Assembly: GCA_028289345.1 (NCBI GenBank)
Contig: JANQQL010000005.1
Span: 291,012 to 355,011, forward strand
DNA length: 64,000 nt
DNA from: Planctomycetota bacterium
Lineage (GTDB): Bacteria; Planctomycetota; B15-G4; SIAN01
Reading direction: 5' to 3'
In this document: positions 20,783 through 45,005 of the stretch, piece after piece
Layout: each line of letters begins with the position of its first letter
Position numbering within the stretch: position 1 is the stretch's first letter
Position numbers and translations under genes: made by a program
The notes under the pieces: model-generated
Database searches by the model: none
What the model was told of the DNA's origin: nothing
What the model saw: only the letters and a program-made list of their open reading frames with translations

Positions 20783-21277
20783 ATGACCCTGGACTGGCAA
20801 TCGTTCTTGAAGCGCTACGGCCCCCTGGCTCGCAACATGGCTCGGGGACTGGGCTGCCGGGAGGAGGATGCCGACGATCTGATCCAGGAGGCGTGTGCCA
20901 GTTTGTGGCGCGTGCTCGAGGAGACGCCCTCCCGGATCGAGGGGGAGAGTCACATGCGCAACTACTTTTTGAAAGCCGTCAGGAACCTCTCCCTCCGCAT
21001 TCGGCGTCGCCCGACACCCGCCAACATGGACGATCTTGCGGCCCCCTCGCCCCCGACCCACGACGAACCTCCCCCGTGGGAATCCATGGCCCAAGCCATC
21101 CAACGACTCTCCGCCAAGGAGCAGGACCTGCTCCGACGCCGCTACAGCCGCAGCCAAACCTTCGCCGAGATCGAACGAGAACTCGGCATCCCCGTGTCCA
21201 CCTTGCATTCCCGCCAAGAGCGCATCCTTTCGAAACTTCGTCGAGCGCTGAATCGATGTCAGGAGGCGGACCCGTGA
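20783..21277 (+). CDS. ECF (sigma-70 family, group IV) RNA polymerase sigma factor
   Basis: Region 2 (DADDLIQEACASLWR) and region 4 HTH (QTFAEIERELGIPVSTLHSRQERILSKLRRAL). Confidence 0.85.
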   Translation: MTLDWQSFLKRYGPLARNMARGLGCREEDADDLIQEACASLWRVLEETPSRIEGESHMRNYFLKAVRNLSLRIRRRPTPANMDDLAAPSPPTHDEPPPWESMAQAIQRLSAKEQDLLRRRYSRSQTFAEIERELGIPVSTLHSRQERILSKLRRALNRCQEADP

Positions 21278-21978
21278 ACACCCACTTGGAACGGGACTCT
21301 CTATCGCGCCTCGCCGCGGGGGAACTCGATGCCGAAGAGTCGATGATCGCTCTGAAGCACGTGGAAACGTGCTCCGAGTGTGCCCGAGAACTCGACTTCT
21401 TGGCAGACCTGGTGGCAGCAGTCGATGACCAGTCTCAGTCCGGGACCTCGGCCATCGAGGCCAGGGAACCGACGACACACTCCCGAATGCTGGTCCCGGC
21501 GTTGGCGCTGTTCGTGGTGGTCATCGCGGCTCGGCTGGTCTTGAGAATTCCCGAACCCGTGCTGCCCTCGGTGCACCCCGAGGCGCCGGCCTACTACAGA
21601 GTCGCCCTCCTGGCCGACGACGATTCGCCGAAGGCTCGACTCGATCGAGCCATGACGCCGTATCGAGAAGCAGATTTTGTGACCGCCGTGAAGACATTGA
21701 CGGAATTCTTGGTCCAAGAGCCAGGACACGCACTGGCGCGTTTCTACCGCGGCGTTTGTCACCAGCAATTGCACGACTACAGCTCAGCCCGACGGGATTT
21801 CTTGGCAGCTCAGGAAACCAGCGAGGGATTTCTCCAACGCCACGCCCGATGGCGTCTCGCCCAGGTGGCGATTCAACAAGACGATCCCGATCGGGCTCGA
21901 GAATTGTTGGGGCAACTCGTTCAAGAAGGTCGAGAATTCTCTCTGAATGCGGAGCAGCTTCTTCAAGACCTCCCGTGA
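21274..21978 (+). CDS. anti-sigma factor, ZAS-type (HxxxCxxC) with one TM helix and an extracytoplasmic TPR-like domain
   Basis: GTG 21274 overlaps the sigma stop (GTGA). Motif KHVETCSECAREL; TM MLVPALALFVVVIAARLVL; C-terminal helical repeat region. An alternative start at the internal ATG (MIALKH...) is possible. Confidence 0.65.
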   Translation: MNTHLERDSLSRLAAGELDAEESMIALKHVETCSECARELDFLADLVAAVDDQSQSGTSAIEAREPTTHSRMLVPALALFVVVIAARLVLRIPEPVLPSVHPEAPAYYRVALLADDDSPKARLDRAMTPYREADFVTAVKTLTEFLVQEPGHALARFYRGVCHQQLHDYSSARRDFLAAQETSEGFLQRHARWRLAQVAIQQDDPDRARELLGQLVQEGREFSLNAEQLLQDLP

Positions 21979-24965
21979 TGGACCCAATCGGCCTCGGCTC
22001 CTTCCTTGTCATTGCGCTGCAGACTCCCGCGGACGCTCTCGCGGCGGTCTCCGTCGAGGAGATGATCCGACAGCGCTCTTGCGACTCTTTGCAACGTTGG
22101 GCCGAGAATCGCCCTTGGGATGTGGCGGATCTGTGCGCCAGCCGGGTACGCGGAATTCTCCAAGCGGCCGCTGACCGAGACTCCTTCGTCGAAGATGCAT
22201 TTCGCGAGCAGGCCTGGTTCCTGATCGACTGCTTGACCGAAGCCCCGGCCCCCGAATGGCTGGCTCTGACCCTGGAATGGGACGACGATCAGCTCCGCGA
22301 GGTGCATGAACTTGGTCGCCAACTTCCCGGCTTGGACCACCAGACACTCGCCGGGTGGCAGGAACGGGCGGAGTCCTTGAACGCACTGCCGCTATTCGAG
22401 TACCGACTGAGTCGGTTGGCCAACCGACTGTTCCAAGAAGGACACCGGTCTCTCGCTGACGAACTGGCCGAACAACTGCTGTTCGTCGCGGAAGACGTCG
22501 AAAGCGGATTGACCCTCGCGTGGAGTTTGCATTGGCTGGCCCGGGTCTCCTGGCGACGCGGTGATTTCGAGGAGTCCCAAGAACGATTTCAACGCTCGCG
22601 CTCGCTGTGGCAGGCTCTCGACGACGACCGGGAGGCCTGCTTGGTGTTGCAAGAGCTGTCGTCACTGCAGTTGGTCACCGGGGACCTGACAGGAGCGCTG
22701 CAGTCGTCCCAGGATGCGCTGCAGGAGGCCCATCGCTTGACCGATTGGGACACCCTTCAGCGAGCGGTGGAGATTCAAGCCTCCATCCTGCAGGAGCTGG
22801 GGGAACCCGCTGCGGCTTATCGAGCGCTGCTGTCTCTCGACGAGGTGGGCCAAGGTCGGGAGTCCGAGCCAGAAACACGAGCGCGCCGAGAGCTGATGCG
22901 CGGCACGATTCTCTCCGACCTGGGTCAAGAGACCTTGGCGGAACAAGCGCTGCAACGGGCGGCCGCGGCCGCGGCTCATCCCTCCGCGGTGAACGCCGCT
23001 CCCGAACTCGCCTGGGAAGTTCAGCTTTCGCTCGGCCTCCTCCTCGGAGATCTGGGACACACCGAGGCGGCTCTCTCTACCCTGCAAACCGCCGAGAAAG
23101 GGTTCCTGGCCGGAGAAGACCCCCGGGGCGCCGCATGGGCCTGGAAGAACCGCGGCTGGGTCCTGCAGCGAGCGGGGCGATTCGAGGAAGCCATGGAGTG
23201 GTTCGCCCGAGCCACGGATTACGGCAAAGAGCACTCGCTGCCCTTCCTGGAAGGCTGGTGTGCCTTGGGCCAGGCCGAATGCGCCGTGGATCTTGGCGAG
23301 CTTCCAGAGTCCTTTGGCCCGTGGCTGCAAGTCGCGCAGGAACGCGGCCGGCAACTCGATGACAATCATTTGCGATGGCGCACGTCGGCGGCATTCGCCG
23401 AAGGCTGCCTTCTCCGAGGGGATCTCGAGGAAGCTCTGATCCATCTCCGCTTGGCGGTGAAGCGTCTCGAATCGCTGCGACAGAACCTCGAAGTTCCGAC
23501 CCTCATGACCCACTTTTTGCGACATCGCGCCGATCCCTACCGACGGGCCGCGTCGGTGGCCGCAAGACTCGGCTCCCACCAGGAGTCGTTTCGCTACGCG
23601 GACTTGCTGTGCGGAAGAATCCTCGCGGAAAGCCGGTCCCGGCAGGAATCTCCGGTCTCATTCTCGAAAGCTGTCTCCCAACTGAGACGCCAAGAGAAGG
23701 AGCTCGTGGCCAAGCGCCGCGACCCGGCGACGGACCAAGGGGCGCTCGACTCCGAACTGGTCACGATCCGACATGCTCTCCGAGAAGCTCTGGTCCGCGA
23801 CGAACTCCAAGCCCCTCGCCAATTCGCGCTCCGAGGACTCTCGGTCCATTCGGTGGACTGCTCCCGACTCCAAGAACGGATTGGTGAACTCCCTTTCGAA
23901 ACACTCATCGAATACTTGGTTCTTGATGACAAGACTCTGGTCTACGAAGTCCGCGAGGACGACTTTCGCGTCCACACCTTGGACATTGGTCGAACCGAGC
24001 TGAAACGGCTGGTGGCGCGCTTGCGAGAACCGATCGAGAAATTGCGTGCCGGACAGATTGACCTGGCCCACTTGGGTTTCGATGGGCAGGCTGCTCGCGA
24101 ACTCTACGAACGCCTGGTCGGTCCCTTGCGCGAACGATGGGGCTCTCGCGTGGCCATCGTTCCTGACGGTCCCCTATGGTCCGTTCCCTTCGATGCACTC
24201 GTCACAGCGGGAAAGCCAGGCCCCCTCGAAATCCGTCGACCATTCTCCCATTTGCAGCCCCTGCAGTTCCTGGCCGAAGAACTCGTGATCTCCATCGTTC
24301 CTGCGGCCGCCGTGCTGGCTTGGCCACCGTCAACCCCGCCTGTTCCGCCACAGACGGTGCCCCCTTCCACGGCGAGACGAAACACGATCGGGTATTCGTC
24401 CAGCCACCGGCAGCCGACACTGCCGCCCCTTGTCCCATCGACGGAGGCTTCTTTCTCGCCACCAGTCCTTCACTTCGCACCGGCGACGAGGCAGGACATT
24501 CTTGGCACCGCCGGTCAGGCTCGTGTCCTGCACTTCTTCGCTCACGGTTTCATCGATCGAGACGTGCCACAGAACTCTCACCTCCTGTTTAGGGATGAAC
24601 AAGGTCGACCGGACCCACTTCGGTCCTGGGAGATCGAGCGACTGCCACTGACGGCGGACTTGACGATCCTGTCCGCTTGTCACAGCGGCGAAGGGGCTTA
24701 TCTGCCGGGAGAAGGCCTCTTGGGATTGACTCGAAGTTTTCTCCTGGCGGGATCTCGGAGAGTGGTTGCAAGCCTGTGGGCCGTGGAAGAAGAGTCGACG
24801 CTGCGTCTCCTGGAACTCTTCCAAGAGGCCCTCGCCAGGGGCATGGAACCTGGGCAAGCACTTCAGCGCGCCAAGCTCGAGCTGCGTCGAACCATGGATC
24901 CGCGGGGCTTCTCTCTGGCTCACCCCTATTTCTGGGCGGGCTGGGTGCTGCACACCGCCGGTTGA
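21978..24965 (+). CDS. TPR-repeat / CHAT-domain (caspase-like protease) protein
   Basis: ATG 21978 overlaps the anti-sigma stop (TGATG). Long N-terminal TPR-like helical array; C-terminal CHAT signature with His (ARVLHFFAHGFID, about 24521-24550) and Cys (LTILSACHSGEGAY, about 24671-24696). The 5' part of the 1069-aa track ORF is out of context, since it overlaps the anti-sigma gene. Confidence 0.85.
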   Translation: MDPIGLGSFLVIALQTPADALAAVSVEEMIRQRSCDSLQRWAENRPWDVADLCASRVRGILQAAADRDSFVEDAFREQAWFLIDCLTEAPAPEWLALTLEWDDDQLREVHELGRQLPGLDHQTLAGWQERAESLNALPLFEYRLSRLANRLFQEGHRSLADELAEQLLFVAEDVESGLTLAWSLHWLARVSWRRGDFEESQERFQRSRSLWQALDDDREACLVLQELSSLQLVTGDLTGALQSSQDALQEAHRLTDWDTLQRAVEIQASILQELGEPAAAYRALLSLDEVGQGRESEPETRARRELMRGTILSDLGQETLAEQALQRAAAAAAHPSAVNAAPELAWEVQLSLGLLLGDLGHTEAALSTLQTAEKGFLAGEDPRGAAWAWKNRGWVLQRAGRFEEAMEWFARATDYGKEHSLPFLEGWCALGQAECAVDLGELPESFGPWLQVAQERGRQLDDNHLRWRTSAAFAEGCLLRGDLEEALIHLRLAVKRLESLRQNLEVPTLMTHFLRHRADPYRRAASVAARLGSHQESFRYADLLCGRILAESRSRQESPVSFSKAVSQLRRQEKELVAKRRDPATDQGALDSELVTIRHALREALVRDELQAPRQFALRGLSVHSVDCSRLQERIGELPFETLIEYLVLDDKTLVYEVREDDFRVHTLDIGRTELKRLVARLREPIEKLRAGQIDLAHLGFDGQAARELYERLVGPLRERWGSRVAIVPDGPLWSVPFDALVTAGKPGPLEIRRPFSHLQPLQFLAEELVISIVPAAAVLAWPPSTPPVPPQTVPPSTARRNTIGYSSSHRQPTLPPLVPSTEASFSPPVLHFAPATRQDILGTAGQARVLHFFAHGFIDRDVPQNSHLLFRDEQGRPDPLRSWEIERLPLTADLTILSACHSGEGAYLPGEGLLGLTRSFLLAGSRRVVASLWAVEEESTLRLLELFQEALARGMEPGQALQRAKLELRRTMDPRGFSLAHPYFWAGWVLHTAG

Positions 24966-34267: not shown

Positions 34268-34813
34268 ATGCGGAAACGACCAATTGTGGGAGTGATGGGA
34301 TCTGGCTCTCTCAGTCACGATGCCGCTGCTTCGGAGTTGGGGAGCTTCCTGGCCACCCGCGCAGTCCACTTGCTGACGGGAGGAGGGGGTGGGGTCATGA
34401 CCAGCGTGAGCAAGGCGTTCTCCCTTTGCAAACCGCGCCTCGGCTGCGTGATCGGCGTGCTGCCATGCGCCAGTCAAGAACAACCGACCATGCCGAAACC
34501 GGGATACCCCAATGACTGGATCGAAATCCCCATCCACACCCACCTGCCTCTGAGCGGCCTTCAGGGAAGAGACTTGGCGTCTCGAAATCACATCAACGTC
34601 TTGTCCTCAGACGTCGTCATCTCGCTTCCCGGCAGTGAAGGCACGCGAAGCGAGATTGATCTTGCGTTGGACTACGGACGGCCAGTCATTGCCTATCTGC
34701 CCCACGACCTGGAGTTTCCCAAGCTTCCCTCCAAGGTGTCCGTGGCCACCGATCTCCCCTCGCTCGAGCGATTCCTCGATGAGCACTTGCCACAGCCTCA
34801 GGATGGGCAGTGA
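34268..34813 (+). CDS. SLOG/LOG-like Rossmann-fold protein (TIGR00725-type, lysine-decarboxylase-like family)
   Basis: PIVGVMGSGS...HLLTGGGGGVMTSVSKAF...ISLPGSEGTRSEIDLAL matches the GGGxGxM and PGGxGTxxE signatures of LOG/TIGR00725. ATG 34268 after aggagg; divergent from the sulfatase. Confidence 0.65.
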   Translation: MRKRPIVGVMGSGSLSHDAAASELGSFLATRAVHLLTGGGGGVMTSVSKAFSLCKPRLGCVIGVLPCASQEQPTMPKPGYPNDWIEIPIHTHLPLSGLQGRDLASRNHINVLSSDVVISLPGSEGTRSEIDLALDYGRPVIAYLPHDLEFPKLPSKVSVATDLPSLERFLDEHLPQPQDGQ

Positions 34814-34921: not shown

Positions 34922-37900
34922 ATGGATTGGATAGCCAAGCAGATTCAATCAGTCCGAGACGGGGCGAGTACCAGACTCGATCTATGGGACGAAGAGCTGA
35001 CAGAGCTGCCGAATGAAGTACTGTCTCTCCACAAGCTCGAATATCTCAGGGTAAGGTCGGGCAAGCTTCGCACGATTCCCTCTGAGCTAGCAAAGCTCCC
35101 CAATCTCAAGAGTGTCGACCTATTCGGCAACCCCATCGAGTCTCTGGTCGATCTCCCGGGGTTACACCTGGATGTCGAGCCCTATCTCTCCTGCGTTTCG
35201 AGCATCTCTCCAGAAAATGTGCACGGGCTGTGGCTCGGCCCGTCTCCTTTCATTAGTTACAGTCTTCTCGAGAAGCTTGCCAACCTCCGACGACTCGACC
35301 TAAGCCGGCGGGATCGGTTCGCGTACAAGACCGGCCTCAACAAACCCGGCCCTTTGCGAAAGTTGTTCGCTTGGCTGAAATCCGCGAACGAGATCCTCAG
35401 CCGCCTCGAAACTTTGGAGATCGCGTACGCGAAACTCGATCGTCTTCCCCTAGTCATCCGGCAATTAAGCCAACTAAAGAAGCTCAACTTAGACGGCAAT
35501 CCTCTTCACCGGTTTCCAAACATCTCGAGGCTTCGAGAACTGTTCGCCTTGCGTCTCTCCGACACCGGGATCAGAGAGGTGCCGGACAAGCTGTGCCGTC
35601 TCACGGAACTTCGAAATCTTGACCTCTCCTTCAACGACCTAGTCAAACTTCCAAACGACATCGGTCGGCTAACCAAACTCTCGAGTCTGGTCCTCGAATC
35701 CAACAACCTCGAGAGAATCCCCAGCTCAGTTCGGAAGCTCAAGAAACTCACATTCCTGGATCTTTCCGACAACCCACTAGCGGAATTTCCGCGGGAGATA
35801 TTTTCTCTCAGTAACCTTCGCGCCTTGAACATGACATGCGGTCTTGACGACTCGACCTGCCAACGTGGCACTTATCCCTTCGTGCGGACCCGACCGTCTC
35901 AAGCGTCGTTTCAGGAGATCCCACCCCGCATTCTCGAGCTCAAGCAACTCGAAGAGCTGCGTGTTTCCGGACAGCCGATTGAGACGCCACCCCCAGAGGT
36001 CGTCGACCGAGGCCTTGAGGCGATCAAGGACTATTGGAGGCAGCGGGGGGACTCGGGGACCGACTATCTTTGCGAGGCCAAACTGCTGGTCGTCGGCGAA
36101 GGGGGGGCTGGCAAGACCTCCCTCGCCAAGAAAGTCAAAGCTCCGGAAACCAACCTCGACGCAGAAGAGGAGTCGACGGAAGGAATTGAAGTTCTCGAGT
36201 GGACATTCCCCACGGCGCTAAGGGTCACAGAGAACGGCCAACTCAAAACCGTGGAGCGCGACTTCCGGGTCCACATCTGGGATTTCGGGGGTCAGGAGAT
36301 CTACCACGCGACCCATCAGTTTTTCCTGACCCGTCGATCTCTCTACGCCCTTGTCGCCGACAACCGCAAGGAAGACACCGACTTCAACTACTGGCTCAAC
36401 ATTGTCGAGCTATTGAGTGACGGAAGCCCGTTGGTCATCGTCAAGAACGAACGCCAAGACCGACAAAGAGACATTGATGAGGGATCTCTTCATGGCCGGT
36501 TCCGCAATCTCACCCAAGTCGTGGCGACGAACCTGAAAACCAACCGGGGGCTCGACGGCGTCCTCCAACGGTTCCGCGAAGAACTCGAGAAGCTGTCCCA
36601 CGTCGGCACTCCCCTTCCGGCAACGTGGAAGCGGGTGCGAGACGCTCTCGAGAAAGACCCCCGCAACTACATCGAACTCGACGAGTATCTCAGGATCTGC
36701 GAGGTTCATGGGTTCACCCGTCTGGACGACAAGCTTCAGTTGAGTGGATACCTCCACGACCTAGGCATCTTCCTCCACTTCCAAGACGATCCCCTGCTGA
36801 AACGAATCGTCATTCTTCAGCCAAAATGGGGAACGGATGCCGTCTATCGCGTCCTTGACAACGACACGGTCCTTCGAAGACACGGCAGGGTGAGCCGCAA
36901 CGACCTAGAGAACATCTGGGACGAAGAAGCTTACGCATCCATGCGCGACGAGCTGCTGCAACTCATGATGCGATTTCAGCTCCTTTACCCACTTCCCTCG
37001 AAGAACGAGTTCATCGCCCCTCAACTGTTAGGATCCGCACAGCCTGAGTACCCATGGCCGGGGACGGGCAACCTCGTCATTCGCTACCGCTACGAGTTCA
37101 TGCCGAAAGGACTCCTGACGCGGCTCATCGTGGCCGTCCACGACATGATTCAAAGCGAAGGTTTCGTCTGGAAGACGGGAGTCCTCGTCGAGCGAGATGG
37201 GACACGCGCGGAGATCGTCGAGCACTACTCCCAGCGATGCATCGTGGTTCGAATTCACGGGGCTTTTCAACAAGAGCTCGCTGCGGTGATTGACCGAGAG
37301 CTCGAACAGATCCACCGTTCCTTTCCTCCACTCAAGTACGACACTCTCGTCCCCTGCGGATGCACCTTGTGCTCTTCGAGCCCAGACCCCCACCCACACT
37401 CCTACAAGACGCTACGAAAGTTTGCTTGGGATGGACAACCGATCCAGTGCCCCATTAGCTACGAGATGATTGAACCGCGGTCGATCCTCGACCACAAATT
37501 CGTGCGCAACCGCAAGCTGGACATAATCCTCGACACGATCGAAGGCACACTCCGACCGCAACAAGCAGAGCCGGCCGCGGCTGAGTCCCGCGAGGTGCTC
37601 CTGTCCTATGCCTGGAACGGAGGATGTGACACCTTGATCGAAAAACTCGAAAAGTCGTTCCGAGAGCGCGGAATCGAGCTGATCCGCGACCGAAGCGAGA
37701 TGACCTACAAGGACTCGATCCGAGGTTTCATGAAGCGCATCGGCACAGGAAAATGTGTTGTCATCGTCATCAGCAAAGAGTACCTGGAGTCCCCCAACTG
37801 CATGTTCGAACTTACCGAGATCGCCAAACACGGCGAGTTTCGTGATCGAGTGTTTCCCATCGTCCTCTCGGACGCGAAGCTGTTCCATCCGGTCAGTCGG

Positions 37901-38140
37901 TTGAAGTACATCAAGCATTGGGAGTTGCAGATCGCGGACCTTGACGAGGCAATGAAGGAAGTCGAGCAGACAAACTTGGACTCCATTCAGGAAGAGATCA
38001 ATCATTATCGGGAAATCCGGACGACCATTGCCGACCTCACAAATGTGCTTCGCGACATGAATAGCCTCACGACAGAGGATCACATCGACACCGAGTTCGA
38101 AGCACTTCTCAATGCGGTCGACTCGCGGTTACGAACCTGA
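34922..38140 (+). CDS. ROCO-type protein with C-terminal TIR domain: LRR - Roc (Ras-like GTPase) - COR - TIR
   Basis: At least 12 LRRs (LxxLxxLxLxxNxL, e.g. LTELRNLDLSFNDLVKLPNDIGRLTKLSSLVLESNNLERIPSSV). Roc G1 LLVVGEGGAGKTSLAKKV (about 36091-36123) and G3 WDFGGQEIY. COR (LSGYLHDLGIFLHFQDDPLLKRIVILQPKWGTDAVYRVLD). C-terminal TIR (VLLSYAWNGG...KCVVIVISKEYLESPNCMFELTEIAK; Glu codons at 37808-37810 and 37817-37819). GC about 43-55% versus about 65% in flanking regions. Confidence 0.85.
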   Translation: MDWIAKQIQSVRDGASTRLDLWDEELTELPNEVLSLHKLEYLRVRSGKLRTIPSELAKLPNLKSVDLFGNPIESLVDLPGLHLDVEPYLSCVSSISPENVHGLWLGPSPFISYSLLEKLANLRRLDLSRRDRFAYKTGLNKPGPLRKLFAWLKSANEILSRLETLEIAYAKLDRLPLVIRQLSQLKKLNLDGNPLHRFPNISRLRELFALRLSDTGIREVPDKLCRLTELRNLDLSFNDLVKLPNDIGRLTKLSSLVLESNNLERIPSSVRKLKKLTFLDLSDNPLAEFPREIFSLSNLRALNMTCGLDDSTCQRGTYPFVRTRPSQASFQEIPPRILELKQLEELRVSGQPIETPPPEVVDRGLEAIKDYWRQRGDSGTDYLCEAKLLVVGEGGAGKTSLAKKVKAPETNLDAEEESTEGIEVLEWTFPTALRVTENGQLKTVERDFRVHIWDFGGQEIYHATHQFFLTRRSLYALVADNRKEDTDFNYWLNIVELLSDGSPLVIVKNERQDRQRDIDEGSLHGRFRNLTQVVATNLKTNRGLDGVLQRFREELEKLSHVGTPLPATWKRVRDALEKDPRNYIELDEYLRICEVHGFTRLDDKLQLSGYLHDLGIFLHFQDDPLLKRIVILQPKWGTDAVYRVLDNDTVLRRHGRVSRNDLENIWDEEAYASMRDELLQLMMRFQLLYPLPSKNEFIAPQLLGSAQPEYPWPGTGNLVIRYRYEFMPKGLLTRLIVAVHDMIQSEGFVWKTGVLVERDGTRAEIVEHYSQRCIVVRIHGAFQQELAAVIDRELEQIHRSFPPLKYDTLVPCGCTLCSSSPDPHPHSYKTLRKFAWDGQPIQCPISYEMIEPRSILDHKFVRNRKLDIILDTIEGTLRPQQAEPAAAESREVLLSYAWNGGCDTLIEKLEKSFRERGIELIRDRSEMTYKDSIRGFMKRIGTGKCVVIVISKEYLESPNCMFELTEIAKHGEFRDRVFPIVLSDAKLFHPVSRLKYIKHWELQIADLDEAMKEVEQTNLDSIQEEINHYREIRTTIADLTNVLRDMNSLTTEDHIDTEFEALLNAVDSRLRT

Positions 38141-38147
38141 CATTCCT

Positions 38148-39452
38148 TTAGTTGTTCTGATTGTCGAACAAGAAGGCCGTCCCTTCTGCAACGCGCCGAA
38201 GCTGAGCATTCGACCAACTCACGTAGTCCACCAGACCACCACGCTTGTCCAGAAGTGACAGGTTGCCGCCGGAGTTGGGTAAGCGCAGCTTGCCGAGAGT
38301 GGAGCCCTTGAGCCGCAGAGCCCCCCCCGACTCGATCGATCCTTCAACCGTGACTTCCCGACCTTGGCCATCGATGAGCCGCCAGCCGGTGACCGACGTC
38401 TTGCGGTCTCCCCGGTTGTGCAGTGACACCCATTCCCCCGAGGCCTCGGTTCCCTTCGGGTTGATCATGGCGGAAATGATCACAATGCGCCGGGACGCAA
38501 GACCCTCCACTTCGGGTCGATCCTCCGCACTTTCGGTGATCACCGAGTTGCTGGGAACCACCGGAATTCGCTCTGGCAGCGAATGGGCGGTTCGTCGGTT
38601 CGCGGGTACGTTTCGATACAGCAGCGGATTCGCATCGTACAGGGCTTTGCCGAAGTGGATGCCCGTCAGATCCTGCAACTCGCTGATGGTCACCTGGTAG
38701 TTTTGATTGGTCTTGACCTGTTTTCCACCTTTCTTGTCCCGCAACACCTCCGCATCTTGAAAGATCGCAAAGGCCATGACCCCCAACGGCTCTCCCGCGG
38801 GCGCCTCTTTCCGAGCGTAGCAGATCACTTTGAAGAACCCCGACGGCACCCGCGCGGAGTCACTGTCCGAAAGGTTGATGTGTCGGTCCAAGTCTCCATA
38901 GATCGGCCCCGTGAACACCGACAGGCGGTCGTTTGCGTCATCCTTGAACTCCCGCACGATGTCCAGCTCCAATGCTTTCCACTCATCGCGGTTCAGGTTC
39001 TCGTGCTGAAGTGACGAGTTCGTATAGATGAATGTCGCCTTCCCCGCTTTGTCGGACTCGGTGTTGTCCACCCCCCACATGTTGTTGAAACGCATGACCA
39101 TGTGCCCACGGTCGTAGGGATTGGGAATCTTTGCTCCCGATGGGGTCTTTCGGTCCTTGTAGTAGTCATTGTCCAGCTGATGATGACGACCAACATTGGG
39201 ATCATTGCGCCAGCCTCGTTCCCCGTTGCCGGGTGGCTTGGGTTTGAAACGGGACTGATCGATGTTGTAAGCGGAATAGATCAGCTGCCGAGTGTGCTCA
39301 TTCATCAGCACGCTGAAATGCACGTGGTCGGAGTACCGCTCGTCTCTCAAGGAAGCGCTTTTCAGCACGGAGCGTCCGAGCGTGGCATTGACTGTTGGCA
39401 AAGGAACGCGCAGCCCTCCACCAATGAACTCCGGGTCATATCCAATTTGCAT
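38148..39452 (-). CDS. DNA/RNA non-specific endonuclease (Endonuclease_NS, DRGH motif) fused to a C-terminal lamin-tail domain (LTD)
   Basis: HFSVLMNEHTRQLIYSAYNID...; catalytic NPYDRGHMVMRFNN. C-terminus EWVSLHNRGDRKTSVTGWRLIDGQGREVTV...GGNLSLLDKRGGLVDYVSW has the LTD pattern. No signal peptide seen. Convergent with the ROCO-TIR gene, stop-to-stop gap of 7 nt. Confidence 0.8.
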   Translation of the reverse strand: MQIGYDPEFIGGGLRVPLPTVNATLGRSVLKSASLRDERYSDHVHFSVLMNEHTRQLIYSAYNIDQSRFKPKPPGNGERGWRNDPNVGRHHQLDNDYYKDRKTPSGAKIPNPYDRGHMVMRFNNMWGVDNTESDKAGKATFIYTNSSLQHENLNRDEWKALELDIVREFKDDANDRLSVFTGPIYGDLDRHINLSDSDSARVPSGFFKVICYARKEAPAGEPLGVMAFAIFQDAEVLRDKKGGKQVKTNQNYQVTISELQDLTGIHFGKALYDANPLLYRNVPANRRTAHSLPERIPVVPSNSVITESAEDRPEVEGLASRRIVIISAMINPKGTEASGEWVSLHNRGDRKTSVTGWRLIDGQGREVTVEGSIESGGALRLKGSTLGKLRLPNSGGNLSLLDKRGGLVDYVSWSNAQLRRVAEGTAFLFDNQNN

Positions 39453-39778
39453 GACATTCCCTCTCCAGAGGACATGGACTCGCCAGATCCTATCCCCTGC
39501 TCGATTGCAATCGTAGACTTCGCCTTGTCGAGGAGCCGCTCGTCAAGCCATCCGCAACTCATGGTCCTCGCGCCCCCCGACTTCGGCTCGCCCTTGAGTT
39601 CCGACTTGAGGTGACTGCCACCGATTGTAGGGACCCTTTCCGAGCACCCACGTGACGAAGGACATCCGCGTCCACCGTCTGATGGGGCAATGGCCGGAAT
39701 CGCTTTCTTGAGTCCCGATCTGTTGGACGAACTCGAGTACAATCTCCACCGCCCACCATCTTCCACGAAGGATCCCCG

Positions 39779-41084: not shown

Positions 41085-44000
41085 CTACGGTTGAACCACG
41101 GTGAGCGTCAAAGACGATGCTCCAAAACTGGCCTGCAGCTCTAACCCGCCACCCAAGACCAATCCGTTGTAGGTCGAGAAGTCTCCTGAGCGCGACCCGT
41201 AAGTCATGATTTCGAAACTGTCACCGAGCTGGGGCGAGAAACCGTTGATAAGCGTCACATTCAGCGTCCCGTCCAGGGTGACCGTACCGCCGACGACCAG
41301 AACATCGAAGTCTGTCCCGGCGGTCAATCCTCCAATCTCGACCTCCATCTGGGCGCTGGAGGATTGGCTGTAATCACCCGTGAACTCAAGCGTTCCCGGG
41401 GAAAGACCAATGTCCGTGGTCCCCTCGACGTCGCCGCTTCCGGTCACTACGCCAGCCCCCCGAAGGGTCCCGGATTGGATGTCGAGGACGAAACTCCCCA
41501 CATCAAAGTTGCCCCCGTTCAGGAACGTCGTGCCCGCGGTTTGGGTGTAGCCGCCCTGAAGCACCAGGGTGCCAGTTTGGACCTCGACGTCGCCGTCGTT
41601 GCGAAACACGACATTGCTCGGAAACACGGTGTCGCCACTGTCAACGGAACGAAGGAAAGTGCCCGAGTTGTTGAAGGTCGAGCTGCTCCCGGACGCGAAT
41701 CCGAAGTCCGCATCACTCTGCACGTCGAAGGTGGCCCCGGCCAGATTGTTGAACACGGAGCCGTTATTGAGGAACAGATCTCCCGAGCCGGTCATGGTGC
41801 TCGCTCCGGAGTTGTTGAGTGTGCGACCGGTCATGACCTTGTTTTGGCTTCCACCGATGGACAGGTTGCCCGAGGAGGGAATGGTCGTGGTCCCGACCTC
41901 GAGCATGAATCCCCCGTTCCAAATGACCGAGTTTTGGGCACTGATCTCTCCGGTTCCTAGGATGGATCCACCGCTTTGGGTGAGGGTGTTGGTGATGACG
42001 ATGCCATCGATGTCCGTCTCGCCCCCGACCACCTGGAATCCCTCCACGGTGAGATTCACTCCGGCTTCGATCTCGAAGGTCCCCCCAATGGTCCGCCAGT
42101 CACCCAAACCGGAAGCCGAGGTCCCCGGCTGCAAAGTTGCCACAGGATTGACCGAGTTGAACTCAATCGCTGCTCCGGAAGACACGTCGACCCCCCCGGT
42201 GTTGATCCCACCTCCGCGGAGACGGAAAGTGCCAGACTGGATCTCCAAGTTTCCATCGCTGTTGAAAACCAGACTCGCGTCCACTTCGGTCACGTCGGTC
42301 CCCCCGGACTTCCGCACTGTGCCGTCATTGTTGAACGTGGAGGGGGTGCCGGTGAAGAACTCCAGGTCAGCATCGGTCTGAACGTCGAAGGTGGCTCCCG
42401 CGAGATTGTTGAAGACCGCCCCATTGTCGATGAACAGAGAACCGTCTCCAGGAACAGCGACGGTCGCCGAGTTGTTGAACGTCCGTCCACCCCGCAGGAT
42501 CTTCGATCCGGACCCGCCCAAAGTCGCCGCAGACCCTGCGGGCACCGTGGTCGTGCCGGGACCACTCTGAGTTCCGCCGGTCCAGTTCATCGACGACGTC
42601 ACCCGCAGCTCGCCAGCTCCCGAAAGAGTGCCCAAGCTCTGTTCGAAGTTTTCTACATCGACCGGTGTCCCTGTCACGTCCAGGGTTCCGCCGATCAGTC
42701 GACCGTTGCCGTCCCCGCTGATGCTGCTCCCATTGGTCAGTGTGGACGTCCCCGCGGCAAACTCCATTGCGGTCCCGGAGTCGAGGGCGAACGACCCCGA
42801 GTTGCTGCCGCCACCTCGAATCTGAAGGCTCCCGGTTTGCACCTGCACCGTTCCGTCATTGTTAAAGGTGAGATTCACGTCGAAGGAATTGGTTCCCGCA
42901 CCTGCGGACTTGACGAAAGTCCCCGCGTTGTTGAAAGCTCCCGGGGCCCCGGTGAAATGCTCGAACGAGGCGTCGCTTTGGACGTCGAAGGAGGCTCCAG
43001 CCAAGTTGTTGAAGACCGCACCCGAAGAGATGAACAAGTCGCCGCTATCAGTCAGTGTCGCCGAGCCTCCGTGATTGATGGTTCGGCCGGAAGTCAAGTT
43101 CTTGGCTCCGGTGCCGCGGATGGTCAACGTGGCCCCCCCCGAAATGGAGGTCGTCCCGGGACCCGCTTGCTCGCCCCCGGTCCATTCCATGGAATCGTTG
43201 ACGATGAGATTGCCATCGCCCTGGAGTTTCCCTGAAGACTGACGGAACGTATCAACGACCGTACTGCCGTCGTCCGCAAGATTCCCGGCCTCGAGGATCA
43301 ACTGCGTGATCAACAAATCGACGCCACTCGAGACTTCCAAGGTCCCGGAATTCACCCGATACTCCCCGTCTCCGTTGCAGGTCGTGGAGGGGTTGAAGAC
43401 GTACGTCGGGTTCGCAGAAGCAAATTCAATCGCCGTCCCCGTGTCGGAAGTGAAGGACCCCGTGCTGGCCCCTCCTCCGGTGAAACGAAACGAGCCGGAC
43501 TGGACCTGCACCGTCCCATCGTTGTTGAACCTCAGGCCGGCGTCCACATTGGTCGTGTCCGCGCCCGCGGATTTCACCAAGGATCCGCGGTTGTCGAAGG
43601 TCGAGGGCGCCCCGGTGAAGAACTCGAGATCCGCATCGCCCTGAATGTCAAAGGTTGCCCCGGCCAGGTTGTTGAACACCGCTCCGTCGTCGATGAACAA
43701 GCTCCCGGAATCGCTCAGCGTCGTCGTTCCCGAGTTGTCCATGGTCCGCCCGCCTCGAAGAACCTTGGGGGAAGATCCGGAAACGAACAGGTCCGCATCA
43801 CTGCCGATCGTCGTCTTCCCGGACCCGTTTTGCATTCCTCCCGTCCAATTCATGCGATTGCTGATGAGCAGCTCGCCGTTGCCGGTTACGGTTCCCGTGG
43901 ACTGCGAGAAGCTCTCGAACGTGACCGGGTTCCCGGCCACATCCAAGGTGCCTCCGCTGAGCAGAGCCTCGCCGTCACCACTGACGCTTGCTCCGGTGTC

Positions 44001-45005
44001 GAGAATGGAAGTGCCCGAGGCGAAGTCCACCGACGATGAGGAGGAAATCGAAAACATCCCAGAAGAGGTTCCCCCTCCGATCAACTGCAGCGTTCCGCTC
44101 TGGACTTGGACGGTTCCGTCATTGTTGAACGCCAGGTTGACGTCGAACGAGGTATTCGTCCCGCTGGACTTGACGAAGTTCCCCTCGTTGTTGAACTCCC
44201 CAGGAACTCCCGTGAAGTGTTCAAATGCCGCGTCGGATTGCACGTCGAAGCTGGCTCCGGCGAGGTTGTTGAACGTGGCGCCCTCCGAGATGAAGAGAGA
44301 CCCGGTGTCCGTGAGGGTGGTCGAACCCCGGTTGTTCATGGTTCGGCCTCCGGTCAGGTTCTTCGCGGACGAGCTACTCATCTGAAGCGTGGCGGACTCC
44401 CCGATGTTGGTCCGTCCGTTTCCGGTTTGCTCTCCCCCGGTCCAGTTCGCTTGCACGGTGACCAACAAACGATTGCCGCCGGTCACGACCCCTCCGGATT
44501 GGGTGAAGTATTCGACATCGAGTTTCTTGTCAACCAGCAGAGTCCCTTGGGACACACACAGATTGCGGATGGTGGAGACACTCTTCTTGACTTCCAGCTC
44601 CCCCCCGGCGAGTTCGATCGTCTCCGTGCATAGGATCTTGCCCGGTTCCGCCGTGCCCGAAGAGAGAGTGACCGTGACGTCCGCACTGGAACGGTCAATG
44701 ATGACGGTTTGCCCCGGCAGCGGCGGCCCTCCCGTACTCCAATTGCTGCCGTCTTCCCAGATGCCGCTGGAGTTGCTGATCCAAATCGCATCGCCCGAAG
44801 GATCTGGCTCGATCCCGATTCGCGGTTTCTCGATCTGAGATCGGGCCGTGGAACTCCAAGCCAACACGAGAGCGAGCCCCAAGAACCGGGAAGCTCCCTC
44901 GGAGAGAAAACGCTTCAAGCCTCGACGCAACGCGATTGCCACTCTGACCATTTCGAAACCCTCATCCCTTTGCCCTCCGGTCCAGAGCCGTCCCGATGCC
45001 TTCAT
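41085..45005 (-). CDS. giant secreted beta-strand-repeat protein (autotransporter-associated / PATR-type repeats), 1306 aa
   Basis: Signal peptide; about 5 tandem units of about 210 aa, each containing NWTGG...GRT(M/I)N(N/H)xGxxTLTDSGxLFIxxGAVFNNLAGA(S/T)FDVQSDA...FNNDGTVQVQ(S/T)GxL. Confidence 0.8.
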   Translation of the reverse strand: MKASGRLWTGGQRDEGFEMVRVAIALRRGLKRFLSEGASRFLGLALVLAWSSTARSQIEKPRIGIEPDPSGDAIWISNSSGIWEDGSNWSTGGPPLPGQTVIIDRSSADVTVTLSSGTAEPGKILCTETIELAGGELEVKKSVSTIRNLCVSQGTLLVDKKLDVEYFTQSGGVVTGGNRLLVTVQANWTGGEQTGNGRTNIGESATLQMSSSSAKNLTGGRTMNNRGSTTLTDTGSLFISEGATFNNLAGASFDVQSDAAFEHFTGVPGEFNNEGNFVKSSGTNTSFDVNLAFNNDGTVQVQSGTLQLIGGGTSSGMFSISSSSSVDFASGTSILDTGASVSGDGEALLSGGTLDVAGNPVTFESFSQSTGTVTGNGELLISNRMNWTGGMQNGSGKTTIGSDADLFVSGSSPKVLRGGRTMDNSGTTTLSDSGSLFIDDGAVFNNLAGATFDIQGDADLEFFTGAPSTFDNRGSLVKSAGADTTNVDAGLRFNNDGTVQVQSGSFRFTGGGASTGSFTSDTGTAIEFASANPTYVFNPSTTCNGDGEYRVNSGTLEVSSGVDLLITQLILEAGNLADDGSTVVDTFRQSSGKLQGDGNLIVNDSMEWTGGEQAGPGTTSISGGATLTIRGTGAKNLTSGRTINHGGSATLTDSGDLFISSGAVFNNLAGASFDVQSDASFEHFTGAPGAFNNAGTFVKSAGAGTNSFDVNLTFNNDGTVQVQTGSLQIRGGGSNSGSFALDSGTAMEFAAGTSTLTNGSSISGDGNGRLIGGTLDVTGTPVDVENFEQSLGTLSGAGELRVTSSMNWTGGTQSGPGTTTVPAGSAATLGGSGSKILRGGRTFNNSATVAVPGDGSLFIDNGAVFNNLAGATFDVQTDADLEFFTGTPSTFNNDGTVRKSGGTDVTEVDASLVFNSDGNLEIQSGTFRLRGGGINTGGVDVSSGAAIEFNSVNPVATLQPGTSASGLGDWRTIGGTFEIEAGVNLTVEGFQVVGGETDIDGIVITNTLTQSGGSILGTGEISAQNSVIWNGGFMLEVGTTTIPSSGNLSIGGSQNKVMTGRTLNNSGASTMTGSGDLFLNNGSVFNNLAGATFDVQSDADFGFASGSSSTFNNSGTFLRSVDSGDTVFPSNVVFRNDGDVEVQTGTLVLQGGYTQTAGTTFLNGGNFDVGSFVLDIQSGTLRGAGVVTGSGDVEGTTDIGLSPGTLEFTGDYSQSSSAQMEVEIGGLTAGTDFDVLVVGGTVTLDGTLNVTLINGFSPQLGDSFEIMTYGSRSGDFSTYNGLVLGGGLELQASFGASSLTLTVVQP
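41405..44555 (-). repeat. intragenic tandem repeat array (about 5 x about 630 bp) inside the giant repeat protein gene
   Basis: Periodicity seen at the protein level (NWTGG at about aa 188, 400, 615, 830, 1050). DNA-level identity not computed. Confidence 0.6.

Follow-up and report, generated by a model that had tools for sequence, protein, structure and literature searches.

A leaderless DRGH nuclease with a lamin tail domain, convergent on a ROCO-TIR gene in a Planctomycetota genome and probably independent of it

AP-GTPase/ROCO conflict proteins combine fast-evolving leucine-rich repeats (LRRs), an AP-GTPase and a COR domain with a variable C-terminal effector (Kaur et al. 2021, eLife, PMC8195603), the TIR domain being one of at least 24 effector domains encountered at this C-terminal position (PMC8195603). 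NucA-type endonucleases are found together with trypsin-like peptidases in 'System 3' of Kaur, Burroughs, Iyer & Aravind (2020, eLife, PMC7159879), for which a proteolytic deployment was proposed, and the lamin tail domain (LTD) goes unmentioned in that work. LTDs are also carried by DNase I-family enzymes of halotolerant organisms, in which they were proposed to bind DNA, and both of the lamin-tail DNases tabulated in that study carry signal peptides (PMC4486849); the domain is also typical of extracellular nucleases such as ExeM (PMC6085458). Here, we analyze a nuclease-LTD gene and its convergent LRR-Roc-COR-TIR (ROCO-TIR) neighbour, both located in a stretch of 64,000 nucleotides (nt) from a Planctomycetota bacterium (assembly GCA_028289345.1, contig JANQQL010000005.1, positions 291,012 to 355,011 of the forward strand), which is referred to as the window and whose coordinates are used throughout.

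The original prediction, made from the letters of the window, had read the nuclease as an abortive-infection effector of the adjacent ROCO-TIR protein and had named the conservation of this adjacency as a check, which homologs without any co-occurrence would fail. No such co-occurrence was encountered in our sample, since the two genes were paired at none of 12 independent nuclease-LTD loci and at none of 15 independent ROCO-TIR loci from other genomes, and the ROCO-TIR protein is self-contained, with LRR sensor, Roc-COR switch and TIR effector in one polypeptide. As a whole, we moderately favour a reading in which the nuclease-LTD protein is an autonomous intracellular nuclease, independent of ROCO-TIR and without a fixed partner, that would be deployed conditionally.

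The nuclease-LTD protein and its relatives

The gene and the parts of its product to which the following text refers are located as follows.

38148 to 39452, minus strand: nuclease-LTD gene, 434 aa, ATG start, TAA stop at 38148-38150 (open reading frame, Pfam, homologs and structure model)
38637 to 39338, minus strand: Endonuclease_NS (ββα-Me, DRGH) domain, residues 39-272 (Pfam, E 5e-32)
39096 to 39122, minus strand: NPYDRGHMV catalytic motif, residues 111-119, with D114 and H117 (read from the sequence; intact)
38492 to 38636, minus strand: inter-domain linker, residues 273-320, with NPL at 275-277 and PERIP at 293-297 (conservation and model)
38211 to 38495, minus strand: LTD (PF00932), residues 320-414 (Pfam, 36.4 bits against a cutoff of 34.3, E 7.6e-9)

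Both domains that had been called in the original prediction were recovered by Pfam, the Endonuclease_NS (PF01223) match reaching 111.7 bits against a cutoff of 23 and covering profile positions 17-221 of 223, and the catalytic motif given there stands unbroken. Pfam detected no domain besides these two. In particular, no nucleotide-signal sensor domain (SLOG, Macro, SAVED or CARF) was found on the nuclease by Pfam or as a PADLOC match, and no N-terminal trafficking domain is present, the protein starting at the catalytic domain itself.

A protein search with the nuclease returned 150 homologs at E<=1e-5, and 109 near-full-length sequences (431-467 aa, 45-74% identity) among the best 120 of these 150 were aligned. 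Residues D114, H117, N145, Q149, N154, W158 and E162 are invariant in this alignment, and E157 is conserved in at least 90% of the sequences. The closest solved sequence, Anabaena NucA, is matched at E 0.003 only, and the active-site residues of the nuclease align with the active-site segment of NucA; H117, N154 and E162 would thereby fall on H124, N155 and E163 of NucA, which we take to be its catalytic histidine, Mg2+-binding asparagine and conserved glutamate, respectively.

An AlphaFold2 model built on the same alignment reached a predicted local distance difference test score (pLDDT) of 90.3 and a predicted template modelling score (pTM) of 0.89, and therefore predicts a defined arrangement of nuclease domain, linker and beta-sandwich. 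The linker, which is ordered according to the model (pLDDT 81-85), contains the invariant residues N275, P276, L277 and P293 as well as E294, I296, P297, R312 and L318, each conserved in at least 90% of the 109 sequences. Residues 323-414 form strands only in the model, which fits an LTD sandwich. Human EXOG, EndoG and CPS-6 are the best solved fold matches, at an identity of about 20% to EndoG/EXOG. It is because of the Pfam domains, the invariant active-site residues, the NucA alignment and the confident EXOG/EndoG-like model that we regard the nuclease as apparently active.

Export signals were assessed by Kyte-Doolittle hydropathy (10-aa window) and by alignment, using the signal peptide of the Serratia nuclease as control. 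According to hydropathy, neither a hydrophobic N-terminus nor a transmembrane segment occurs in the window nuclease or in any of the 109 family members, the highest 10-aa mean in the family being 1.64 versus 2.71 for the control signal peptide. The absence of a signal peptide, previously noted for the window protein, could thus be verified and extended to 109 of 109 members. A missed leader is also not apparent from the gene starts: an in-frame stop lies 30 codons upstream of the nuclease ATG, the Shine-Dalgarno-like sequence GGAGAGGGA is positioned just 5' of it, and Shine-Dalgarno-like sequences likewise immediately precede the start codons of nuclease-LTD homologs.

All nuclease-LTD members carry a conserved GYDPxFIG motif within a few residues of the start. 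In a trypsin fusion encoded at a Planctomycetes locus described below (L177), a YDPDFL motif also opens the NucA domain, which is internal there (residue 773), and we therefore assign the motif to the fold rather than to an export signal. The family has a single conserved cysteine, so that no conserved disulfide is evident. Upstream of the nuclease-LTD genes, no LexA-box or Pho-box patterns were found at the 11 loci analyzed.

The homologs listed derive from several phyla, with Gammaproteobacteria, Alphaproteobacteria, Acidimicrobiales and Bacteroidota among the named sources, and many named members belong to marine taxa (Hyphomonas, Tateyamaria, Granulosicoccus, Pelagibius, Flagellimonas). 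The nearest homolog among the listed matches is 74% identical to the window protein. The family is strongly conserved and has spread horizontally, largely in marine bacteria. In the phage collection and IMG/VR, only distant nuclease-only relatives (26-36% identity) were encountered, none of them with an LTD, and plasmids carried only relatives of at most 36.6% identity. A literature search for cytoplasmic bacterial NS nucleases returned nothing relevant.

Two observations on individual copies are worth recording. The homolog of Flagellimonas onchidii (L008, 10001-11307) is split over two frames near residue 345, and its database entry (P0105, 358 aa) is without an LTD; either the gene is a frameshifted pseudogene or its sequence contains an error. 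Moreover, long antisense open reading frames within the nuclease gene (window 38245-39614, plus strand; same place in L001-L007) seem 'conserved' in BLAST; these are shadow frames of a conserved GC-rich gene, not genes.

The surroundings of the family in sequence space were charted by searching exhaustively, without a profile, with just the nuclease domain as query, which yielded 941 cluster representatives (50% identity) at E<=1e-10. The nearest 80 of these representatives all contain Endonuclease_NS, accompanied by an LTD in 49 (best E 1e-12) and by trypsin in 27, and a few by M4 or S8 peptidases; the trypsin-fused representatives share roughly 33-43% identity with the window nuclease domain. 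Leaderless relatives on plasmids, sharing 32-37% identity, have a caspase-family gene as neighbour in Sinorhizobium, are flanked by S8 peptidase genes in Bacillus thuringiensis and are located among methyltransferase genes on Vibrio pSEA2. These plasmid-borne and trypsin-fused relatives match System 3 of PMC7159879.

The convergent junction and its conservation

The nuclease gene is flanked by the ROCO-TIR gene and a PQQ beta-propeller gene. The junction on the ROCO-TIR side comprises the following elements.

34922 to 38140, plus strand: LRR-Roc-COR-A-COR-B-TIR_2 gene (ROCO-TIR, AP-GTPase conflict protein), 1072 aa, TGA stop at 38138-38140 (Pfam)
38141 to 38147, no strand: stop-to-stop spacer, 7 nt (sequence)

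The 7-nt distance between the two stops, on which the proposed pairing had been built, is correct. Neither a terminator-like hairpin at the junction nor significant structure upon folding of positions 38090-38210 (z-score 0.34) was found. Comparable junctions are encountered elsewhere, both within the window, where a DUF6265 gene and a histidine kinase gene converge with a 6-nt gap (55226/55233) and a PhyH and an AraC-type gene with a 22-nt gap, and at the 3' ends of ROCO-TIR homologs, where unrelated convergent genes follow at gaps of -12, -4, 3, 21 and 48 nt. The 7-nt gap is therefore not unusual.

The two genes do share a low GC content, as had been remarked (57.5% for the nuclease and 55.7% for ROCO-TIR, versus 61.2% for the window); a joint acquisition, however, is not indicated by it. 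GC content at third codon positions (GC3) amounts to 0.715 in the nuclease gene and 0.69 in the ROCO-TIR gene, with surrounding genes at 0.70-0.75, and in GC-rich hosts the nuclease gene likewise lies 3-5% below its flanks in GC, with a GC3 that tracks that of the host. We therefore attribute the low GC to amino-acid composition rather than to foreign codon usage or joint recent acquisition, and a co-acquired island of nuclease and ROCO-TIR was rejected on these grounds. The window contains no tRNA gene.

On the nuclease side, no ROCO, TIR or SLOG gene neighboured the nuclease-LTD gene at any of the 12 loci examined, and tblastn with the ROCO-TIR, SLOG, PQQ and sulfatase proteins of the window against these loci recovered the window's own contig only. 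An all-against-all comparison of flanking open reading frames revealed no shared neighbour, the only matches being antisense shadow frames, and no peptidase gene next to the homologs, no conserved secretion-system genes nearby and no inhibitor or adjacent cognate immunity gene were found at the loci examined. The contexts vary instead: MutY and a radical-SAM gene in Hyphomonas; Rieske oxygenase, P450 and PolB; citrate synthase and DinB; a TRAP transporter; and MFS transporters. Defence-like contexts are few, namely VapBC in L103 (a metagenome-assembled genome (MAG) of Acidimicrobiales), Gabija in L105 and a Y1 transposase in L011. In L105 (4942-11726), a Tle1-like (DUF2235) hydrolase gene precedes the nuclease-LTD gene at a distance of 12 nt, and the latter is followed by genes for a Gabija-like GajA (AAA_15 and OLD TOPRIM) and GajB (UvrD helicase).

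On the ROCO side, the LRR-Roc-COR-TIR family is very large (4912 matches at E<=1e-20), and from it and its surroundings 15 independent ROCO-TIR loci and about 65 further ROCO loci without TIR were sampled, about 80 in total. A hidden Markov model of the nuclease-LTD family gave no match to the open reading frames of these approximately 80 loci. The neighbours of ROCO-TIR vary by locus and include methyltransferase, DUF4440, HipA, ABC ATPase, dehydrogenase and DUF362 genes, as well as a Y1 transposase-like gene, NB-ARC-TPR STAND proteins and a TIR protein.

The P-loop of the window ROCO-TIR (G392-K398) and the putative TIR catalytic glutamate E963 (window 37808-37810) are invariant in 40 homologs, and the latter fits an active TIR effector. 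With such an effector of its own, ROCO-TIR would therefore need no separate effector gene. A gene for a 181-aa SLOG protein (window 34268-34813, plus strand; Pfam LDcluster4, E 4e-28; TIGR00725-like below cutoff) precedes ROCO-TIR by 108 nt in the same orientation, and TIR plus SLOG recalls the signal-and-sensor logic of Thoeris. phmmer with this SLOG protein detected no homolog at the 15 other ROCO-TIR loci, among which only L177 has a TIR-LD_cluster2 fusion nearby.

Two settings of ROCO-TIR bring other nuclease domains into its vicinity. At two Thermoanaerobaculia loci (L021, 6001-12027; L022, 4102-10128), the stop of ROCO-TIR is separated by 3 nt from that of a convergent 940-aa Trypsin_2-PLDc_2 gene, which is a second tight tail-to-tail case involving a nuclease domain, but of an unrelated nuclease family. 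The Planctomycetes locus L177 (1-22461, MAG contig JACRIP010000601.1) contains a ROCO-TIR ortholog of 46% identity within a dense island that also encodes pentapeptide-TIR, TIR-LD_cluster2 (TIR-SLOG), Trypsin_2, S8, two more TIR_2 proteins, and the fusions Trypsin_2-Endonuclease_NS and Trypsin_2-Exo_endo_phos. In the Trypsin_2-Endonuclease_NS fusion of L177, the NucA domain reads DRGR and not DRGH; the catalytic histidine is replaced and this domain may be inactive.

Taken together, these results indicate that the tail-to-tail position of nuclease and ROCO-TIR is, in the loci sampled, specific to the window's genome, and that ROCO-TIR genes tend to sit among conflict-type genes without a fixed partner. 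A loose, island-level association of the two is plausible, because the nuclease shares a clade with trypsin-fused NucA domains and ROCO-TIR often lies among conflict-type genes. In function, the nuclease is in all likelihood independent of ROCO-TIR.

Possible roles of the nuclease

According to the reading favoured here, the nuclease would be an autonomous, intracellular, Mg2+-dependent and sugar-non-specific ββα-Me nuclease acting on DNA and/or RNA, in which H117 of the DRGH motif would serve as general base and N154 as ligand of Mg2+. The conserved, ordered linker and the LTD would restrain the catalytic domain, direct it to its substrate, or both, and autoinhibition by linker or LTD is conceivable. 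We infer both the intracellular action and the regulation by LTD and linker. The LTD form would thereby constitute a nucleic-acid degrader that is deployed conditionally, a conflict-type feature suggested because, LTD-bearing proteins aside, the nuclease domain is most closely related to NucA domains that predicted conflict systems carry as trypsin fusions. Resting on this analogy, the conflict-type role itself is put forward tentatively, as a possibility that falls somewhat short of an even chance. A more specific version, in which the protein is a single-gene conflict or suicide nuclease whose LTD and PERIP linker replace the trypsin regulation and keep it inactive until an infection or damage cue, here perhaps the collapse of NAD+ caused by ROCO-TIR, is decidedly doubtful.

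Several points weigh against the favoured reading. An unrestrained, non-specific nuclease in the cytoplasm should be toxic, yet an inhibitor gene was not encountered; elsewhere, LTDs typically belong to secreted nucleases (PMC6085458, PMC4486849); and the genomic contexts of the family are mostly housekeeping or metabolic. The sequence is highly conserved and not diversifying, which is unusual for conflict effectors, and PADLOC and NCBIfam models give no match to the nuclease. With respect to its independence from ROCO-TIR, the comparative samples are modest in size (12 and 15 loci), and the nearest relatives compared, at 74% identity for the nuclease and about 50% for ROCO-TIR, are more distant than the window's own lineage, within which a lineage-specific coupling may exist.

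Among the rival explanations, the best-surviving one takes the protein for a housekeeping intracellular nuclease of DNA repair or nucleic-acid turnover, similar to EXOG/EndoG, with the LTD selecting the substrate as does the wing domain of EXOG. EXOG and EndoG as best fold matches, the prevailing housekeeping contexts, with repair genes one to three genes away at three loci (MutY in Hyphomonas, PolB in L001 and DinB in L007), strong purifying selection, host-matched codon usage and the absence of an immunity gene are all in line with such a role. A core gene, however, would not be expected to show the patchy distribution, shaped by horizontal transfer, that is observed here, no LexA-box-like motif precedes the gammaproteobacterial and alphaproteobacterial copies, the proximity to repair genes is not conserved and may be due to chance, and the nearest relatives are NucA-trypsin fusions of conflict type. 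We consider a housekeeping role of this kind unlikely.

A function in the scavenging of extracellular DNA for nutrition, or in competence, was also weighed, the nuclease leaving the cell by a non-classical route and the LTD holding it on DNA or at the cell surface. This explanation, close to an alternative raised in the original prediction, would account for an LTD of the kind typical of extracellular nucleases (ExeM and the halotolerant DNases; PMC6085458, PMC4486849), for the many members from marine taxa and for the cross-phylum spread at 45-74% identity, which suggests a useful, transferable ecological trait. Export, on the other hand, is poorly supported: a Sec, Tat or lipoprotein-type N-terminus or a C-terminal membrane anchor was found in none of the 109 members, alike in Gram-negative, actinobacterial and Bacteroidota hosts, conserved secretion-system genes are missing from the loci, no Pho-box-like motif lies upstream, and a single conserved cysteine leaves no conserved disulfide evident. 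Of that earlier alternative, the coincidental nature of the linkage to ROCO-TIR is retained, whereas a secreted nuclease is not supported; taken as a whole, we rate scavenging or competence as quite improbable.

Finally, that the nuclease is a dedicated abortive-infection effector of ROCO-TIR, activated directly or by a TIR-made signal and coupled in expression through overlapping 3' ends, is very improbable, since the adjacency across 7 nt, the nuclease-domain genes near other ROCO-TIR genes (L021/L022 and L177) and the SLOG gene just 5' of ROCO-TIR are set against the absence of the pairing from all 12 nuclease-LTD and 15 ROCO-TIR loci, a nuclease without a recognised nucleotide-signal sensor (LTD only), a ROCO-TIR that brings its own effector and belongs to a family described with variable C-terminal effectors, a convergent orientation that rules out co-transcription, equally tight junctions between unrelated genes, and a GC3 without any signal of joint acquisition.

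Had the pairing been real, it would have represented a new two-gene defence system with a ROCO GTPase-TIR protein as sensor and a nuclease as effector; given the comparative evidence against it, the locus should therefore not be catalogued as a system. The value that remains is modest and lies in a large, conserved and uncharacterised family of non-specific nucleases with LTD, lacking export signal and inhibitor partner. How cells tolerate such a protein could reveal a new regulation of these nucleases and a role of bacterial LTDs.

Three further genes of the window are mentioned for completeness. A 1069-aa TPR-CHAT protein (caspase-like peptidase; 21756-24965, plus strand), a conflict-type gene product, is encoded some 10 kb upstream, with a gene for an extracytoplasmic function (ECF)-type sigma factor (20783-21277, plus strand) ahead of it. 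Beyond the nuclease gene, at 41085-45005 on the minus strand, lies the gene for a 1306-aa protein with several long internal repeats in recurring '...NLAGASFDVQSDA...FNNDGTVQVQSG...' units, a hydrophobic stretch after the N-terminus and no Pfam family on record.

Comparison with known systems

The window nuclease is of a known kind, that of the non-specific nucleases, and belongs to a leaderless, LTD-bearing family that is uncharacterised. As a combination of LRR, Roc, COR and C-terminal TIR, the window ROCO-TIR resembles the AP-GTPase conflict proteins (PMC8195603), from which it does not differ in any notable respect; it is an ordinary member. In contrast to a Thoeris-like pair, the nuclease has neither a signal-sensing domain nor a conserved association with a TIR gene, and unlike the effectors of polymorphic toxin and secretion systems it comes without adjacent immunity gene and without trafficking domain.

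The pairing of a nuclease with an LTD is shared with secreted LTD nucleases such as Shewanella ExeM, Vibrio Xds and the DNase I-family enzymes, many of which are from marine or halotolerant organisms, as are members of the nuclease-LTD family. ExeM and Xds use endonuclease/exonuclease/phosphatase catalytic domains, whereas the window protein has an Endonuclease_NS catalytic domain and, as judged by hydropathy, no signal peptide or anchor.

Fold and catalytic residues are those of Anabaena NucA, the Serratia nuclease and EndoG/EXOG. Two of these enzymes, NucA and the Serratia nuclease, are secreted proteins, whereas mitochondria import the other two; the nuclease-LTD sequence, by contrast, is remote from these enzymes (E 0.003 to NucA) and lacks a targeting signal, and no gene for a NuiA- or EndoGI-type inhibitor was found near the window nuclease. 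A C-terminal extra domain is a feature in common with EXOG, in which, going by the titles of structure entries, it alters substrate handling.

Closest to the window protein is the NucA-trypsin System 3, with which it shares the leaderless NucA/Endonuclease_NS domain, the clade and the YDPxFL domain start. It differs from this system in that it is neither fused to a trypsin, S8 or caspase peptidase nor adjoined by a gene for one, in that an EAD or STAND partner is lacking, and in that its C-terminus is an LTD. Because the associated peptidase, the defining feature of System 3, is missing, we do not file nuclease-LTD proteins within that system but regard it as their nearest described relative.

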